In this document: positions 3,995-61,021 of the stretch, one piece after another
Layout of the letters: the number at the start of each line of letters is the position of its first letter
Position numbering within the stretch: position 1 is the first letter of the stretch
Source: Candidatus Doudnabacteria bacterium
GTDB lineage: Bacteria; Patescibacteriota; Doudnabacteria; UBA920
Direction of reading: 5' to 3'
Assembly (NCBI GenBank): GCA_963837465.1
Contig: CAWINB010000004.1
Coordinates: forward strand, 394,853 to 458,852
DNA: 64,000 bases
Position numbers and translations under genes: made by a program
Notes under the pieces: model-generated
The model's database searches: none
What the model saw: only the letters and a program-made list of their open reading frames with translations
What the model was told of the DNA's origin: nothing

Positions 3995-4710
3995 AGCGCC
4001 TGGATTTGATGGTGCGTCCGGCTAAGGAGCGGGACTGGCCGGCAATTTTAGAAATCGAACAGCGCTGGCAGCGGGACAATGTGGAGCCATTGTCGGAAAA
4101 AATTTTTCGGCTGTGGATGCGGACTCATCCGGAAGGTTTTTTGGTCGCGGTGGACGGCAGGGGGGAAGTTTGCGCCCATGCTTACGTTGAATGCGTCAGT
4201 TTCAGCTACGGACAGTTTAAAGCAGGGGAGAGCCGGGAAATTTTTACCCGTCCTTACGGCTCCCCCCGGCATAATCCGGACGGCAATTCCGTGCTGGTGC
4301 TGAACATTGCCGCCGTATCGGGAAGCGGCGGCGGAGTGGCGGCGTTGTCGGGGGTTACGGAGCTGGCTCGCGCCTGGGGCAAACAGAGGGTTTTTTACAT
4401 TCCCCGCATGCCCGGACTTTCCGCTTATCTGCAAGCCTGCCGGTCCTGGACACAGGCGGCGCTGCCGGACAAAAAAAGCATCGCCGCTTACTACGCGGTT
4501 AATTCCATGCGCGCGGTGGGCGCGGCAGTGGACACCGCGATTGCCGCGCGGGTGAAAGATCTGGAATTGCCCCCGGTGGAGAAACCCGACCAGGTACTGG
4601 CCCGTTTTATAGGCAGGGAACTGGGCGGCGAGTTGTGGGAAATTATTGACAGCGGCTACTCCGATCCGCTGAGTCTGGATTTGGCAGCGTTGTGCGTTAA
4701 GACTTTATGA
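3991..4710 (+). CDS. GNAT-family acetyltransferase-like protein
   Basis: The start overlaps the previous gene's stop (ATGA), so the two are translationally coupled. A motif-A-like Gly-rich segment (VSGSGGGVAAL) follows a beta-strand core (FLVAVDGRGEV). Confidence 0.45.
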   Translation: MKRLDLMVRPAKERDWPAILEIEQRWQRDNVEPLSEKIFRLWMRTHPEGFLVAVDGRGEVCAHAYVECVSFSYGQFKAGESREIFTRPYGSPRHNPDGNSVLVLNIAAVSGSGGGVAALSGVTELARAWGKQRVFYIPRMPGLSAYLQACRSWTQAALPDKKSIAAYYAVNSMRAVGAAVDTAIAARVKDLELPPVEKPDQVLARFIGRELGGELWEIIDSGYSDPLSLDLAALCVKTL

Positions 4711-4804: not shown

Positions 4805-6796
4805 ATGATAAGCCCGTTTTTATTTACTTATATTTCCGGTATTTTTTCGGTAATTTGCTGGGTCTACGCCGGGGCGATAATCCGCAAGCGCCGCCAGAAG
4901 CCCCAGGTCCGTTATTTGGCCATGCTGATTGCCTTTGCCGGTTTGTGGGCTTTCAGTAATTCCTGGGCCGATGTCAGCGGAAGCAATGATCAGATACTTT
5001 TTTGGAGCGGCATGGCCATGTTAACCTACGCGTTTTTTACAGCCGGATTTTTTCATTTTACTTACCATTTTGTCGCGGAGTACCAGAAGCCCGCCAAGTG
5101 GATGCTGTGGTTGGTTTACGGGTTGACCATCATATTTTCGGTTTCAGGTTTTACTTCCTTAAGCTATTACAATCCCGTGGTGCTATATACCGGTCCAACC
5201 CTGGTTTCGGTTGGCTTTATGGCCGTAGCCGGCAACGCTTTTTTCTATCTGGTTTTTTTGGCCGCTTATTTTTTGCTCTGGAAAAATTACAAAAAAATGC
5301 CCCCGCGGCAGCGCTACCAGAGTATCTATATTGTAATCGGCAGCCTTGGGACAGTTATCGGCTGCGTGGTTTTTACCGTAATTTTACCGCTGTTCGGCAA
5401 CGCTAATTTTTACAGCACCGGACCGGTGTTTGACGCTTTTTTGATAGTCGGCATTTCTTACGCTATTTTTAAACATAACTTGCTGGACGTTAAATTTGTC
5501 ATCCAGAAATCCATCATTTACCTTTTTTTGCTGGGAATTATCGTGGTTTTTTATTTGACCCTGCTCTATGCCGCCCCCTACTTTCTGGACAACTCAGGCA
5601 GTCACGCCGTCTACCTGATTGACTCTTTGCTTACGGCCATAGCCGGCATTTTTGGTGTGCCTCCCCTGGAGCGCCGCTTCCGCAAAATCACCGACCGCTG
5701 GTTTTACCGCGACGCTTACGATTACGCCCAGGCTCTGCACGAACTCAGCGAGGTGCTGAAGCAGAATCTGGAACTGGAGCCGCTGAAACGGCGGACCGCG
5801 GAGACGCTTAAAAATTTTTTAAAGAGCGGTTATGTTGATTTGAGGCTGCTTGAGGAACCGGCGGGAACCGGCTTTATCGGTTTTGGCGTGGAGATTAAAT
5901 CATCCGGCAGGCAGATAGCCGAACTGCGGCTCGGTGAAAAACTTTCCGGCGACCCCTATTCCCAAAAGGATTTACAGCTCCTGAAAACTTTCGCCAATCA
6001 GGCCGCTGTAGCTCTGGAAAAAACCAGGCTGTTTGAACAGGTCAGGGCGCACTCGGTAATGCTGGAGGAGCAGGTTAACAGCCGCGCCGTCCAGTTGCGC
6101 GGGGCGCGGGAAGCCCAGAAGCAAATGATGATAGATATTTCCCATTCCCTGCAAACTCCGCTGACTGTAATGAAAGGACGCCTGGATTATCTGAAAAACC
6201 GCATCCCCGGAAATGAAGAGGTAAAAATTTTGGAAAAAACCGTGGACGAGATATCCAAGCGGGTTTATGATTTATTGCGTCTGGCCCGTTTGGAGGCCAG
6301 GGAAGAAATTTTTGATTTCCGGCCCATGAACTTAAGCGGCCTCGCCGGAGAAATGGTGGAATATCTCCAGGTTTTATGCGAAGCGCAAAATATTGCTTTG
6401 CGTTCCGCTATAGAGCCGGAAATTTTTGTACAGGGGGACAGGCAAAGGCTGGAAGAGATGATAAATAATATCGTCAGCAACGCCATTAAGTACACCGGTA
6501 ATGAACGTGTGATTTGGGTTTCGCTTCGCCGTAACGGCATTTCGGCCGAGCTTATTATACAAGACAGCGGCGTGGGTATAAATCCGGAGTCTTTGCCCTA
6601 TGTTTTTGACAGATTTTACAGAGAGCCCAATTCCAGCAACGCCGGCGGCATGGGTGTGGGCCTGGCCATAGCCAAAAAAATTGCCGAACAGCATAAAGGC
6701 AATATAAGCGCGGCAAGCGTTGTAGGCAAAGGTTCAACTTTTACTGTCAGCCTGCCGCCGTTGGTTGATGCGTTAAAAACCGGAATACCGGGTTAA
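4805..6796 (+). CDS. membrane sensor histidine kinase
   Basis: About six N-terminal TM helices are followed by a central GAF-like linker, a HisKA H-box (HSLQTPLTVMKGRLDYL) and HATPase_c N/G boxes (NAIKYT, GVGLAIAKKIAEQHKG). Confidence 0.85.
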   Translation: MISPFLFTYISGIFSVICWVYAGAIIRKRRQKPQVRYLAMLIAFAGLWAFSNSWADVSGSNDQILFWSGMAMLTYAFFTAGFFHFTYHFVAEYQKPAKWMLWLVYGLTIIFSVSGFTSLSYYNPVVLYTGPTLVSVGFMAVAGNAFFYLVFLAAYFLLWKNYKKMPPRQRYQSIYIVIGSLGTVIGCVVFTVILPLFGNANFYSTGPVFDAFLIVGISYAIFKHNLLDVKFVIQKSIIYLFLLGIIVVFYLTLLYAAPYFLDNSGSHAVYLIDSLLTAIAGIFGVPPLERRFRKITDRWFYRDAYDYAQALHELSEVLKQNLELEPLKRRTAETLKNFLKSGYVDLRLLEEPAGTGFIGFGVEIKSSGRQIAELRLGEKLSGDPYSQKDLQLLKTFANQAAVALEKTRLFEQVRAHSVMLEEQVNSRAVQLRGAREAQKQMMIDISHSLQTPLTVMKGRLDYLKNRIPGNEEVKILEKTVDEISKRVYDLLRLARLEAREEIFDFRPMNLSGLAGEMVEYLQVLCEAQNIALRSAIEPEIFVQGDRQRLEEMINNIVSNAIKYTGNERVIWVSLRRNGISAELIIQDSGVGINPESLPYVFDRFYREPNSSNAGGMGVGLAIAKKIAEQHKGNISAASVVGKGSTFTVSLPPLVDALKTGIPG

Positions 6797-24997: not shown

Positions 24998-25140
24998 CAA
25001 GTACGCTTTTGTGTCCGCTACCCTATCTGCAAGTCGTAAGAGCCGATATCATCCCTCCTATTATCGGCTTGAGCATCAAGCAAAGGTTCGTAGACGATTG
25101 TTTGCGGCCTTTCACTTGCAGGTGGGGTAGTGGGTATAAA
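24998..25140 (+). ncRNA. candidate structured small RNA (unclassified)
   Basis: A 17-bp long-range helix (cuacccuaucugcaagu / acuugcaggugggguag, including two GU wobbles) encloses an 8-bp hairpin (agccgaua/uaucggcu) with a C-rich loop. It is preceded by the consensus promoter and followed by a palindromic element. Confidence 0.3.
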
Positions 25141-25223
25141 TTTACGAAGTACGAACAGGTGCGAACTTACGAACCAACAAGCGTATCGATTCGTACGTTC
25201 GTAAACTTAGTACTTCGTAAACT
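25141..25223. repeat. solo palindrome of repeat family 3 (tttacgaagtacgaa ... ttcgtacttcgtaaa), the cargo-less form of the GxxExxY mini-element TIRs
   Basis: The two arms match the TIRs flanking the GxxExxY gene at 59828-60316. Confidence 0.7.
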
Positions 25224-36802: not shown

Positions 36803-37274
36803 GGGTAATGACAAAAATGAGCAAAAATAATAAAAATGACAAAAATGGCGGACAGAGATTTAAAACAAAGGACAAAGAAGTTTGGTATTGAAGTAATTAA
36901 GCTAGTTCAGCAAATTAATGAAAAAGGTCCGGTTGCGGCAAAAATAATCGCCAATGGGCAGCTAATAAGGTCGGGTACCGGAGTAGCCGCGAACTACAGA
37001 GCTGCGTGCAGATGTAAGTCCAGAAAAGATTTTATTTCAAAAATTGGTACGGTAATTGAAGAAGCGGACGAAACTCAGTTGTGGCTTGAGTTACTTATTG
37101 AATCAGGACTTATAAAAGCGGAATTAATTAAAGAGCTTTTACAGGAATCAGGAGAGATAACAGCGATCATGACTTCATCAAAAGATTCGGCAATTAGAAA
37201 TCAACAAGGCGCGAAAGAATAGAGCGGTCGTATTTTTGTCATTTTTTTAATTTTTATTATTTTTGTCATTACCC
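36803..37274 (+). mobile_element. mini-element: four-helix-bundle protein gene flanked by roughly 45-bp terminal inverted repeats (gggtaatgacaaaaat ... aaaaatgacaaaaatg)
   Basis: The left TIR (36803-36848) and the reverse complement of the right TIR (37231-37274) are near-identical. The element sits between hisS and the HIT gene. Confidence 0.7.
36836..37222 (+). CDS. four-helix-bundle protein (TIGR02436-like; '23S rRNA intervening-sequence protein' family)
   Basis: The helical pattern and the motifs LIRSGTGVAANYRAACRCKSRKDFISKI and EADETQLWLELL are characteristic. Confidence 0.7.
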   Translation: MTKMADRDLKQRTKKFGIEVIKLVQQINEKGPVAAKIIANGQLIRSGTGVAANYRAACRCKSRKDFISKIGTVIEEADETQLWLELLIESGLIKAELIKELLQESGEITAIMTSSKDSAIRNQQGAKE

Positions 37275-58607: not shown

Positions 58608-59828
58608 ATGAAAAAAACTATGGAAGTCAAACCAAAAATTGAAGCTTTTGCCAGGATTAAGGTTTTGGGCATTGGAGGGTCGGGGACTAACGCGGTTAAC
58701 CGTATGACCCAGCTGGGCATTAAGGGTGTGGAGTTTATTGCTATTAATACCGACGCGCAGGCTTTGCATAATAACCAGGCCGACCGGAAGGTCCATATTG
58801 GCAAAAGCGCCACCAAGGGCCTTGGCAGCGGTATGAATCCCGATTTGGGCAGGCAGGCGGCCGAAGAAAGCGTGGAAGAACTGGAAGAGGTTATAGACAA
58901 CGCGGATATGGTGTTTATTACCTGCGGTTTAGGAGGCGGCACGGGTAGCGGCGCGGCTCCTATTGTGGCTGAGCTGGCTAAAAACAAAGGCATCTTAACC
59001 GTGGGCGTAGTTACCAAGCCATTTACCTTTGAAGGCAGCAAGCGCAAGGAAGTGGCCGAAACCGCTTACGATAATTTAAAGGATAAAGTAGATGCCATTA
59101 TCTCCATCCACAACGACCGCATCCTCCAAATCATCGACAAAAAAACTTCACTCATCGAAGCTTTTAAAACTGTGGATGAAGTCCTGCGCCAGGGCATTGC
59201 GGGTATTTCCGACCTGATTACCACCCATGGTATTGTTAACGCGGATTTCGCGGACGTAAAAAGCATAATGCAGGACGCGGGCACGGCGCTTATGGGTATT
59301 GGCCGGGCCACGGGCGAAAATCGCGCGGCGGAAGCGGCTAAAGCGGCCATTAATTCTCCTTTGCTGGAAATGACCGTAGACGGAGCCAAAGGCGTGCTGT
59401 TTAATATTACCGGCGGCAGCAGTTTGGGAATGTTTGAAATAGACGAGGCAGCCAAGGTTATTACCAGGAGCATAGACCCGGATGCCAAGGTTAAGTTTGG
59501 CGCGGTTATAGACGAAAATATGGGCGACGAAGTGCGCATTACGGTTATTGCCACGGGTTTTGATGAAAGCAGCAAGCGTACCACCACGGCCCAAATGGTT
59601 TTAAACGAACAACCTAAAACTGTCAGGATGCCCGAACCTAAAATTGTTAACCCGGTTATACCGCCGGTAGAAATCCGCAAGCCGATGTTTAATCCCAAAC
59701 CGGCTCCGGTACCGGAAAATATAGATTTTACCCCGAACGCCGTAAACATCGGCAAGCCGGAACCAAGCGAACCGGTCAACGAAGACGATCTGGAAATCCC
59801 GGCGTTTATTAGAAAGAAGATGAAATAG
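58608..59828 (+). CDS. ftsZ: cell division GTPase FtsZ
   Basis: The tubulin signature GGGTGSG is present, with N-terminal IKVLGIGGSGTNAVNRM and a conserved C-terminal DDLEIPAFIRKK peptide. Confidence 0.9.
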   Translation: MKKTMEVKPKIEAFARIKVLGIGGSGTNAVNRMTQLGIKGVEFIAINTDAQALHNNQADRKVHIGKSATKGLGSGMNPDLGRQAAEESVEELEEVIDNADMVFITCGLGGGTGSGAAPIVAELAKNKGILTVGVVTKPFTFEGSKRKEVAETAYDNLKDKVDAIISIHNDRILQIIDKKTSLIEAFKTVDEVLRQGIAGISDLITTHGIVNADFADVKSIMQDAGTALMGIGRATGENRAAEAAKAAINSPLLEMTVDGAKGVLFNITGGSSLGMFEIDEAAKVITRSIDPDAKVKFGAVIDENMGDEVRITVIATGFDESSKRTTTAQMVLNEQPKTVRMPEPKIVNPVIPPVEIRKPMFNPKPAPVPENIDFTPNAVNIGKPEPSEPVNEDDLEIPAFIRKKMK

Positions 59829-60316
59829 TTTACGAAGTACGAAAATTTACGAACTTACGAACATGACGCCTTCTATTTTGCGGCGACAGGATTTAATTCA
59901 TCCTGAGCTAAGCTATAAAATAGTAGGCGTCCTTTTAAATGTTTATGGTCAGTTAGGCTATGGCTTATATGAGCGCGCTTATCAGAAAGCTGTTGGCGTA
60001 GGTTTTAAAAAGGCAGGCTTATTGTTTGTGGAACAGCTCTACGCTCCGATTGTTTTTGAGGGTACTGTTGTGGCTAAAAATTATCTGGACTTTTTGGTGG
60101 AAGATAAGGTGGCCGTTGAATTAAAACGCGGAGACAAGTTTGTTAAAGCCCATATCGATCAATTGTATAATTATTTAGTGGCTAAAGATTTACGGCTGGG
60201 AATTTTGGTTTATTTTGCTCCTAACAGGTTGCACTACAAAAGAATTGTGAACCTGCCCCAAGATCCAAAGGTCAAATAAGTTTCGTAAGTTCGTACCCTT
60301 TTCGTACTTCGTAAAC
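59828..60316 (+). mobile_element. mini-element: GxxExxY-family gene flanked by roughly 36-bp near-perfect terminal inverted repeats
   Basis: Left TIR gtttacgaagtacgaaaatttacgaacttacgaaca (59828-59862) and the reverse complement of the right TIR (60280-60316), gtttacgaagtacgaaaagggtacgaacttacgaaac, are about 90% identical. Confidence 0.75.
59863..60279 (+). CDS. GxxExxY-family protein (PD-(D/E)XK nuclease-like fold, TIGR04256-like)
   Basis: The sequence YERAYQKAVGVGFKKAGLLFVEQLYAPIVFEGTVVAKNYLDFLVEDKVAVELKRGD has the GxxExxY-like pattern, with an acidic core (D...E.K). Confidence 0.7.
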   Translation: MTPSILRRQDLIHPELSYKIVGVLLNVYGQLGYGLYERAYQKAVGVGFKKAGLLFVEQLYAPIVFEGTVVAKNYLDFLVEDKVAVELKRGDKFVKAHIDQLYNYLVAKDLRLGILVYFAPNRLHYKRIVNLPQDPKVK

Positions 60317-60643
60317 TCATAAAGCTGATCCACTTGCTTTTTCTCTCTCGCTGTGCTATAATAAGTAGGTAATGATATTTCACGGTCGGTTTCCCAAAAA
60401 CAGGGAAGGAATATCTTTAGGACTAATATCAAAGAAACAAAAACAATCCGGATAATTTTCTGGAGAAGTTATCGGGATAAAACCAAAACACAATTAAATA
60501 TTTCCAAAAGCTTTATAATTGGCTCTGTCAATTGGAGAGCGAATTTATATCGCGGATTTATCCAAAAGCATTTAATGTTTTTGGAGTATATCCTGTTTTT
60601 GTGAATAAGAACCTATTTTCTCAAACAGGTTCCAAATAGATAT

Positions 60644-61021
60644 ATGACCAAATTTTTAACCCAGGAAACTCCTGCCAAAGTAATGAGCCTGCTTAGCTTA
60701 TCTTTGGCTTCCATGTTCTTTTTATTCGCTGTTACCTTAAGTAACGCCAGTTTCAGCCAGGTGCAAAACCCGCTACCCGACCCTTTCGCGGCCACAAACA
60801 TTACGCGTGTGTTGGATGTGGCTTCAAACAGCTACAGTAATTTCCTTTACGCCAACTTAATAAATCCCACGCAAGCGGAATACGCTTTTGTGGCCGGCAA
60901 TGTGGCTTATGTGGGGCAAAATGCCGGTTATGAAATTGCCGAACTTAGCAGTCCTATTTATGCTTCGGCTTCCCAGGGTCAGGCGGCTGGCGCTGCCGCT
61001 GAATTGGTTGCCACAAAGTAG
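60644..61021 (+). CDS. small secreted protein, hypothetical
   Basis: An N-terminal hydrophobic signal-like segment is present. Confidence 0.35.
   Translation: MTKFLTQETPAKVMSLLSLSLASMFFLFAVTLSNASFSQVQNPLPDPFAATNITRVLDVASNSYSNFLYANLINPTQAEYAFVAGNVAYVGQNAGYEIAELSSPIYASASQGQAAGAAAELVATK

Follow-up and report, generated by a model that had tools for sequence, protein, structure and literature searches.

The genome of a Candidatus Doudnabacteria bacterium carries, directly behind ftsZ, a small gene of the GxxExxY family enclosed by two inverted repeats. The gene lies in a stretch of 64,000 nucleotides (positions 394,853 to 458,852 of contig CAWINB010000004.1; hereafter the window). What kind of element do this gene and its repeats form, and how is it kept at this site? 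The original prediction regarded it as a tiny element with terminal inverted repeats (TIRs), in which the GxxExxY protein is the cargo or possibly the mobility factor, and which also produces derivatives without the gene. We propose, with a probability of about 45%, that it is a palindromic element of the intervening sequence (IVS) type with a nuclease gene as cargo. It would occupy an operon spacer, be transcribed by read-through, be cut by RNase III, and be maintained by its own nuclease. The classification as an IVS-type palindrome rests on tool results, and the closest known relatives are the IVSs of 23S rRNA, which were absent from the original prediction.

Architecture of the element downstream of ftsZ

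A repeat search and protein profile matches confirmed a 138-aa GxxExxY gene directly after ftsZ, between near-perfect inverted repeats of about 36 bp. The features of the ftsZ site and of a related palindrome in the window are as follows.

58608-59828, plus strand: ftsZ, the upstream host gene, from the list of open reading frames (ORFs); Pfam Tubulin/FtsZ_C matches the identical gene in locus L121
59827-59861, plus strand: left arm, 35 nt, AG TT TACGAA G TACGAA AATT TACGAA CT TACGAA
59863-60279, plus strand: GxxExxY / PDDEXK_3 gene, 138 aa
60282-60317, plus strand: right arm (inverted copy), 36 nt, TTCGTA AG TTCGTA CCCTT TTCGTA C TTCGTA AACT
60334-60362, plus strand: conserved promoter-like block read in the window, TTGCTT-N17-TATAAT (TTGCTT-N17-TGTGCTATAAT) with extended TGTG
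25141-25223, no strand assigned: ORF-less palindrome (hereafter solo), left arm 25141-25173, loop of 16 nt, right arm 25190-25223

Read in the window sequence, the inverted repeat starts at 59827 (AGTTTACGAAGTACGAAAA...), and the stop codon of ftsZ (TAG, 59826-59828) overlaps its first two bases. The left arm contains four hexamers with start-to-start spacings of 7/10/8 nt and ends 1 nt before the ATG, and the right arm begins 2 nt past the TAA stop codon of the GxxExxY ORF. The inverted-repeat search found a perfect outer pair of 19 nt (59827-59845 / 60299-60317) and a perfect inner pair of 14 nt (59848-59861 / 60282-60295). These pairs are split by a non-complementary spacer of 2-3 / 3-4 nt, and the arms, 35-36 nt long, differ by one indel. 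The predicted unit of 489 bp is real but measures 491 bp by our coordinates. Allowing up to two mismatches, the arm 15-mer TTTACGAAGTACGAA occurs at four sites in the window, exactly the four arms of the ftsZ element and the solo, where 0.18 sites are expected and none of 100 shuffles reached four. Chance recurrence of the four arms is excluded. The predicted ORF-less palindrome with the same arms is likewise real, as it holds two of these four sites and folds with a z-score of -4.0. It is located directly 3' of the stop codon of pth (25227, minus strand), and its other side faces a non-coding block that is itself conserved and precedes dprA. In the ftsZ element, the two arms pair with each other in the minimum-free-energy fold of 59815-60330 (z-score -4.7).

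Target-site duplications, which the original prediction had proposed to look for, were found at none of the copies examined: neither at the ftsZ element (flanked by GATGAAAT and CATAAAGC) nor at the pth solo, nor at solos in L001, L026, L050, and L077. On the plus strand of the window, the region between ftsZ and the GxxExxY ORF has no promoter-like or terminator-like site, and the GxxExxY gene has neither a Shine-Dalgarno (SD) sequence nor its own promoter. The promoter-like block at 60334-60362 serves the next gene (60644-61021) and represents the downstream limit of the slot of the element. The same block is found 3' of the element, a solo, or a lone arm in L122, L126, L217, and L218. The consensus promoter scan missed this block because TTGCTT fits only 3/6 bases of TTGACA. 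The element fills exactly the spacer from the ftsZ stop codon to the promoter of the next gene. A tblastn search of the 64-kb window found this single GxxExxY gene and no second one, and no Rfam family matches the ftsZ element, the pth solo, or the conserved block beside the solo.

The GxxExxY protein is a predicted nuclease

The 138-aa protein matches PF13366 PDDEXK_3 (1.2e-25, 90.6 bits; cut-off 22) and TIGR04256 GxxExxY (7.4e-27, 94 bits; cut-off 35). It contains the catalytic E...D...(D/E)xK and the alpha-beta-beta-beta-alpha-beta core, and the PD-(D/E)XK residues E37, D76, E86, and K88 are intact; the catalytic E, D, and ExK are invariant in the family. The fold is Cas4/RecB-like, with Cas4, restriction enzymes, and Hjc as fold neighbours. 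A sequence search of the PDB with the family profile gave nothing significant (best match Csn2, E = 0.08), and the function of the GxxExxY family is given as unknown (PMC3424549). Judged from its sequence, the protein is a predicted PD-(D/E)XK nuclease. Its only matches are PF13366 and TIGR04256, and none of the recognised transposase classes (DDE, HUH, serine, tyrosine) was found. Phage carriage was considered and rejected, since 2.9 million IMG/VR viral contigs lack the arm pattern and none of 50,697 phage records contains the protein.

Gene and arms form one unit across the family

Relatives of the window protein, about 90 in all and 43-80% identical to it, mostly sit tightly between arrays and are co-oriented with both neighbours. 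A metagenome scan yielded 80 loci with relatives of 43-64% identity, which were pooled with genome loci to give 93 evaluable GxxExxY ORFs. Repeat units are present on both sides of most of these ORFs (at least two in 70/93, at least three in 48/93), and the remaining ones mostly have degenerate units or a single arm. Start and stop codons lie directly next to the arms, and in 52 non-redundant elements the stop-to-ATG gaps of about 33-50 nt per side consist of the arm only. The orientation of these elements is the same as that of the upstream gene in 43/45 cases and that of the downstream gene in 46/46. Gene and arms are one unit family-wide, as had been proposed for the window copy.

The units are of several types, namely TACGAA, ACGAAT, TACTAA, TACGGA, TACAGA, TACAAA, CGCTGA, ACAGAA, and TGCGGA, and both arms of any one element have the same unit. 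In a neighbour-joining tree, the unit type tracks the protein clades. Paralogues on one contig carry their own unit each (three in L174, two in L159, two in L082), and a solo of the rare CGCTGA type in L082 is located 3.3 kb from a GxxExxY element of the CGCTGA type.

The anatomy of the TACGAA arm is TACGAA-N1-TACGAA-N3-5-TACGAA-N2-TACGAA. In 58 non-redundant arm pairs, 1324/1392 hexamer positions are complementary. N1 is complementary in 43/58 pairs (about 31% expected by chance), and the complementarity of the middle spacer, 0.30, is at chance level. This pattern indicates a stem in two segments, of about 13 and about 14 bp, on either side of an internal loop of about 4x4.

Four-hexamer arrays are common to several phyla

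We scanned one genome per species of the GTDB collection with the pattern TACGAA-N-TAC-N-AA-N2-12-CGAA-NN-TACGAA and obtained at least 120 loci. Among the matches listed, about 83 belong to Patescibacteria of many lineages, 21 to Bacteroidota, 8 to metagenome-assembled genomes (MAGs) labelled 'Gammaproteobacteria', 3 to Bdellovibrionales, and 1 to Omnitrophota. These matches always have four hexamers, with start-to-start spacings of about 7 / 9-11 / 8 nt, and appear as lone arms, as inverted pairs around a loop of 6-54 nt (the commonest form), as ORF-enclosing pairs, and as tandem direct arrays. Four of the listed arm pairs enclose a GxxExxY ORF (L045, L072, L082, L094), and several dozen are ORF-less. 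Although ORFs of at least 120 aa make up 75% of the DNA, only 17/168 arms lie within such ORFs.

Solos in one genome are near-identical even in their loops and asymmetric spacers (MFVF01, L026, L077), and thus constitute a dispersed repeat family. Other genomes have 3-6 near-identical solos within 8 kb; the source DNA has two sites within the 64-kb window. Solos often fill exactly the gap from a stop codon to the SD-ATG of the next gene, even between ribosomal-protein genes (rplV, rpsC), and therefore they cannot be strong terminators and do not block transcription. Lone arms with four intact hexamers occur as well. An arm consists of four direct hexamers without self-complementarity, and a lone arm cannot fold on itself. 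With their hexamer arrays, their conserved 7/10/8 spacing, and their presence in several phyla, the arms are not ordinary TIRs. The inverted termini and ORF-less copies of the predicted TIR element are real, but its repeats are of this other kind and the ftsZ copy is not recent. The repeat is not confined to the window either: many copies occur elsewhere, and orthologous loci keep the repeats around the gene.

In Bacteroidota, some arms form head-to-tail tandem arrays (L018 7090-7365, L099 3422-3648, L036 1298-1419, L017 5305-5523), with 11-24 hexamers in a row and a period of 41 nt in L018. Such arrays cannot form hairpins and are unexplained by a stem model. In L134 (2670-2935), five tandem left arms with a period of about 58 nt are followed by one GxxExxY ORF with a single right arm. 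A 77-bp inverted repeat of P. gingivalis (PMC3969353), found in a text search for TACGAA/TTCGTA, was dropped, as its sequence is unrelated to the hexamer arrays.

Relation to 23S rRNA intervening sequences

The 23S rRNA IVSs of Coxiella, Leptospira, Salmonella, and others are excised by RNase III, and some carry an S23p / 23S_rRNA_IVP (PF05635, TIGR02436) ORF. In Coxiella (PMC4990558), the IVS is 428-444 nt long, and RNase III cuts its terminal inverted-repeat stem of 28 bp. GACAGAT heptamers, three or four in tandem, stand directly in front of the ATG of its S23p ORF, which encodes a four-helix bundle and has a poor SD sequence. The ftsZ element and its relatives share the size of about 430-490 nt, the complementary terminal arms able to enclose a small ORF in a long stem, the poor or absent SD sequence, the ORF-less short versions, and the sporadic spread over phyla. 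The 5' arm is likewise made of tandem short repeats ending at the ATG, four TACGAA here and 3-4 GACAGAT in Coxiella. Unlike an IVS, however, the ftsZ element is located in a protein-coding operon spacer and not in a 23S hairpin tip (helix 9, 25, or 45), and its cargo is a PD-(D/E)XK nuclease (PF13366) instead of a four-helix-bundle protein. Excision by RNase III in Coxiella occurs without religation (PMC4990558), and may be extended to the ftsZ element by extrapolation only.

Two observations connect the hexamer arrays with IVSs. In L026, a MAG labelled Gammaproteobacteria, three ORF-less TACGAA palindromes of the window type, each 89 nt long, lie in an rRNA operon (1909-1997, 4535-4623, 5317-5405). 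Two of them are at the tips of 23S hairpins, at positions of about 583 and 1218 of the large-subunit (LSU) rRNA model, which we take to be the classical IVS sites in helix 25 and helix 45, and the third lies in the 23S-5S spacer. The 23S gene of L026 spans 4110 nt compared with 2925 model positions, and therefore it holds further insertions. No GxxExxY gene was found inside rRNA in about 100 loci; in L166 and L171, the element lies 1.5 kb downstream of the 16S gene. The other observation is a second element in the window itself, which has the same architecture and a different cargo.

36803-37274, plus strand: second element, in the hisS-HIT spacer
36803-36847: its left arm, four units of about 10 nt (ATGACAAAA), with the ATG within the fourth
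36836-37222: its ORF, 128 aa, 23S_rRNA_IVP (four-helix-bundle; Pfam PF05635, 2e-13), first matched by jackhmmer
37232-37274: its right arm

The inverted repeats of this element are 33 nt long and 85% identical, and all four exact copies of the ATGACAAAA unit in the window lie within it. It fills its spacer closely: 3 nt separate it from the hisS stop (36799) and 7 nt from the ATG of the HIT-family gene (37282). In L168, L132, L186, and L206, genes for four-helix-bundle proteins also lie between inverted arrays, each built from its own unit. Regarding the GxxExxY protein as the cargo or the mobility factor of the ftsZ element agrees with the linkage of gene and arms, but the protein belongs to no transposase class, and the unrelated IVP cargo in the same architecture weakens the idea that GxxExxY is 'the' transposase.

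IVS elements and the IVP ORF are already known, but more than 25 years after IVSs were discovered, their origin and mobility were still called unclear (PMC4990558). A 2024 survey of rRNA insertions in the candidate phyla radiation (CPR) reported short IVS-like insertions and IVP ORFs; arrays, GxxExxY, and non-rRNA copies are unreported there (PMC11270868). The literature searched gave no description of IVS-type elements outside rRNA, of GxxExxY as a frequent cargo, or of a conserved hexamer-array grammar across phyla, and these appear undescribed. The same applies to the co-variation of the unit type with the cargo clade and to the decay series from ORF-bearing elements through solos to lone arms.

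Other rRNA insertions of the typical CPR type lie close to arm-bearing loci. The 16S rRNA of L166 (1-1528) has about 730 nt extra (model positions 739-1533 span 1528 nt), and the 23S gene of L046 (1074-3350) is interrupted by a group I intron.

Inheritance and occupancy of the ftsZ and pth sites

The gene context is conserved in related genomes. The homologues P0005 (79% identical) and P0020 (74%) are found in the order ftsZ, GxxExxY, a 125-144-aa hypothetical protein, nrdR, and RNR, and L131 also has a 64% identical GxxExxY homologue 3' of ftsZ. Comparing the gene context in relatives, as the original prediction had suggested, revealed that L122 and L126 retain the ftsZ synteny together with the arms. 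Among the window, L122, and L126, dS (synonymous substitutions per site) is above 1 or not computable (saturated), and protein identity is 85-88% for FtsZ, 80-87% for NrdR, 72-75% for GxxExxY, and 48-57% for the neighbouring hypothetical protein. The ratio of nonsynonymous to synonymous substitutions (dN/dS) of GxxExxY is about 0.10-0.16. The eight hexamers (48 bases) are all identical in the three loci, and the middle spacers vary in sequence and length. Since the hexamers are identical despite saturated dS and the dN/dS of the ORF is low, selection maintains both protein and hexamers. The copy at ftsZ is an old, vertically inherited one and no recent insertion.

Occupancy of the same sites differs among lineages. 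At ftsZ, the ORF is present in the window, L122, L126, and L131. In L217, whose FtsZ is 79% identical, its place is taken by an ORF-less palindrome of TACAGA/TACGGA units, and the loop of this palindrome contains a terminator hairpin. A single arm of three hexamers precedes a terminator in L218 (84%), and the site is empty in L219 (76%). The orthologous pth spacer contains a TACTAA-type solo in L211 and only an ordinary terminator hairpin in L213 and L215. A 60-aa GxxExxY remnant in L179 is internally deleted and still inside the arms, and a GxxExxY copy in L082 is frameshifted. These decayed ORFs indicate that ORF-less palindromes can arise from ORF-bearing ones. The predicted ORF-less derivatives are thus borne out by dispersed near-identical copies in other genomes, by the decay intermediates in L179 and L082, and by the different occupancy of orthologous sites.

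Proposed mode of maintenance

We propose the following mode of maintenance for an IVS-type element with a nuclease cargo. Lacking a promoter, the element would be transcribed by read-through from ftsZ. The arms of the transcript would pair into the two-part stem described above, and RNase III would cut this stem as in the rRNA IVSs, releasing the ORF RNA and leaving the insertion harmless to the host transcript. By analogy with rRNA IVSs, RNase III cutting of the arm stem probably makes the element harmless. The element is probably maintained or spread by its nuclease, through an action on cognate palindromes at the DNA level. In this step, the nuclease would act on ORF-less copies of the hexamer-array palindrome, and homing-like, break-induced copying would keep its own gene. 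Solos would then be decayed copies or unoccupied sites. Mobility of the element, like its processing by RNase III, is inferred. Homing endonuclease genes are free-standing or intron-borne, and the PD-(D/E)XK type includes I-Ssp6803I. The ftsZ element is like them in having a small nuclease ORF in the middle of a symmetric site and, as proposed here, an insertion made harmless at the RNA level, and orthologous sites vary among lineages from occupied to empty or degenerate, which resembles a homing cycle. Unlike homing endonuclease genes, it has no self-splicing intron or intein, and its 'site' is a repeated palindrome at many loci.

Several points weigh against this proposal. An unrelated cargo, the four-helix bundle, occurs in the same architecture, and the arrays may therefore serve something independent of GxxExxY. 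Lone arms with four intact hexamers are simply explained by neither the stem nor the homing model. The ftsZ copy has long been inherited vertically, one GxxExxY gene is present in 64 kb, and there is no direct sign of spread. For gene conversion between loci, arms with about 35 bp of homology each are short, and RNase III cutting is only extrapolated from the rRNA IVSs. Mismatches in the arms are not biased towards G-U on the sense strand (34 sense vs 29 antisense, which is uninformative). Selection on an RNA stem is therefore undemonstrated, and a role of the arms at the DNA level is equally possible.

Alternatively, the nuclease might be a single-copy, vertically inherited, domesticated protein whose gene lies between its own recognition repeats and which moves or maintains ORF-less palindromes in trans, perhaps with a benefit to the host and without spreading its own gene. 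This is the relationship known from REP-associated tyrosine transposases (RAYTs) and the repetitive extragenic palindromes (REPs) and REP doublets (REPINs) linked to them. As in that system, a single gene lies between inverted copies of an otherwise dispersed, gene-less intergenic repeat, this gene is passed on vertically under purifying selection, and different paralogues have different repeat types. Several findings fit: the ORF has long been inherited vertically at a single locus, purifying selection acts on it and on its hexamers, one copy within 64 kb compares with many solos (four ORF-enclosing pairs and several dozen ORF-less ones among the TACGAA matches listed), a cognate CGCTGA-type solo lies near the cargo copy in L082, and the solos of one genome are near-identical. 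However, RAYTs are HUH/Y1 proteins of the IS200/IS605 kind and GxxExxY is a PD-(D/E)XK nuclease. Each REP unit is an imperfect hairpin, whereas the arms here are direct hexamer arrays that pair only with the opposite arm. REPs are species-specific, and the hexamer motif is common to several phyla. Frequent loss and decay of the ORF would be unexpected for a domesticated essential helper, and the same architecture occurs with a non-nuclease cargo. We consider such a helper rather unlikely. About equally unlikely is a host RNA module, that is, an intercistronic hairpin for processing, stability, or insulation or a substitute for a terminator, whose loop ORFs are passengers (e.g., defence- or toxin-like) unrelated to the arms. 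It would account for the palindrome in place of an intrinsic terminator 3' of pth, the terminator hairpins that, at the ftsZ site, lie within the loop or immediately follow a lone arm, the exact filling of stop-to-SD spacers even in ribosomal-protein operons, the rarity of arms inside ORFs, and the two unrelated cargo families in one architecture. A plain hairpin, however, requires neither four identical hexamers per arm nor the 7/10/8 spacing, nor would its hexamer type be expected to co-vary with the cargo clade, and the tandem direct arrays of Bacteroidota cannot form hairpins. The missing G-U strand bias also speaks against a module acting as RNA, as does the patchy occupancy of orthologous sites, which suggests that the module is dispensable.

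A miniature cut-and-paste TIR transposon, with GxxExxY as its transposase and non-autonomous derivatives resembling miniature inverted-repeat transposable elements (MITEs), seems improbable. The terminal inverted repeats, the ORF-less derivatives and dispersed copies in other genomes, the internal-deletion intermediate in L179, and the presence or absence at orthologous sites are what such a transposon would leave. Against these stand the missing target-site duplications at the window copies and the solos elsewhere, and a protein without a known transposase fold or domain. Co-orientation of the ORF with its neighbours in 89/91 cases and the exact filling of spacers are a poor fit to free transposition, the ftsZ copy has persisted for longer than synonymous sites take to saturate, and the arm motif and the protein are absent from the viral contigs and phage records searched. 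MITEs and intergenic palindromes such as Correia/NEMIS, ERIC, RUP, and BOX are short, intergenic, multi-copy, and co-transcribed repeats with inverted termini, and Correia elements are RNase III substrates. The elements described here share the short length, the terminal inverted repeats, the intergenic location, the multiple copies, and, as proposed here, co-transcription with flanking genes. They differ from these repeats in the lack of target-site duplications, the hexamer-array grammar, the linked protein family, and the copies in rRNA hairpins.

The IVS-type reading with a nuclease cargo can be widened. GxxExxY nucleases, perhaps together with IVP proteins, might be the mobility or maintenance factors of IVSs in general, with hexamer-array palindromes forming one unrecognised class of mobile elements in which each nuclease lineage reads its own hexamer. 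We regard this extension as doubtful. If true, the class would colonise operon spacers as well as rRNA hairpins in Patescibacteria, Bacteroidota, and Proteobacteria and would offer a naturally diversified set of repeat-array-specific nucleases. Two very large families (PF13366/TIGR04256 GxxExxY and PF05635/TIGR02436 four-helix bundle) share one genomic grammar, a small promoterless ORF inside inverted arrays of about four short repeats, as in the 23S rRNA IVS. Nuclease-bearing, operon-spacer, and dispersed ORF-less palindromes provide a concrete candidate for the origin and spread of IVSs and would explain a common class of intergenic repeats in CPR and Bacteroidota genomes. The specificity of these small nucleases may be readable from their own flanks.

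Neighbouring features

Between the pth solo and dprA, a block of about 125 nt (25010-25134, minus strand) is conserved in L211, L213, and L215. Its RNAalifold structure contains five covarying pairs and a hairpin whose loop, AUAGGAGGGAUGA, does not vary, and it has no Rfam match at E <= 1. This block is a candidate leader or small RNA upstream of dprA.

Immediately 5' of ftsZ, L218 (1796-2459) has a pair of genes for a nucleotidyltransferase (NTP_transf_2) and a HepT-like protein. The pair is absent there in the window and thus looks like another small selfish-type module nearby.

On the other side of the ftsZ slot, a long untranslated stretch lies between the promoter-like block and the 125-144-aa hypothetical gene (window 60363-60643, L217 3790-4180, L218 3940-4136). 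Across the genomes, this stretch has in common the motif TTTCAAAGGTCGATT and a hairpin GGCTCT..CAATTGG.GAGC, and it is possibly a structured leader.

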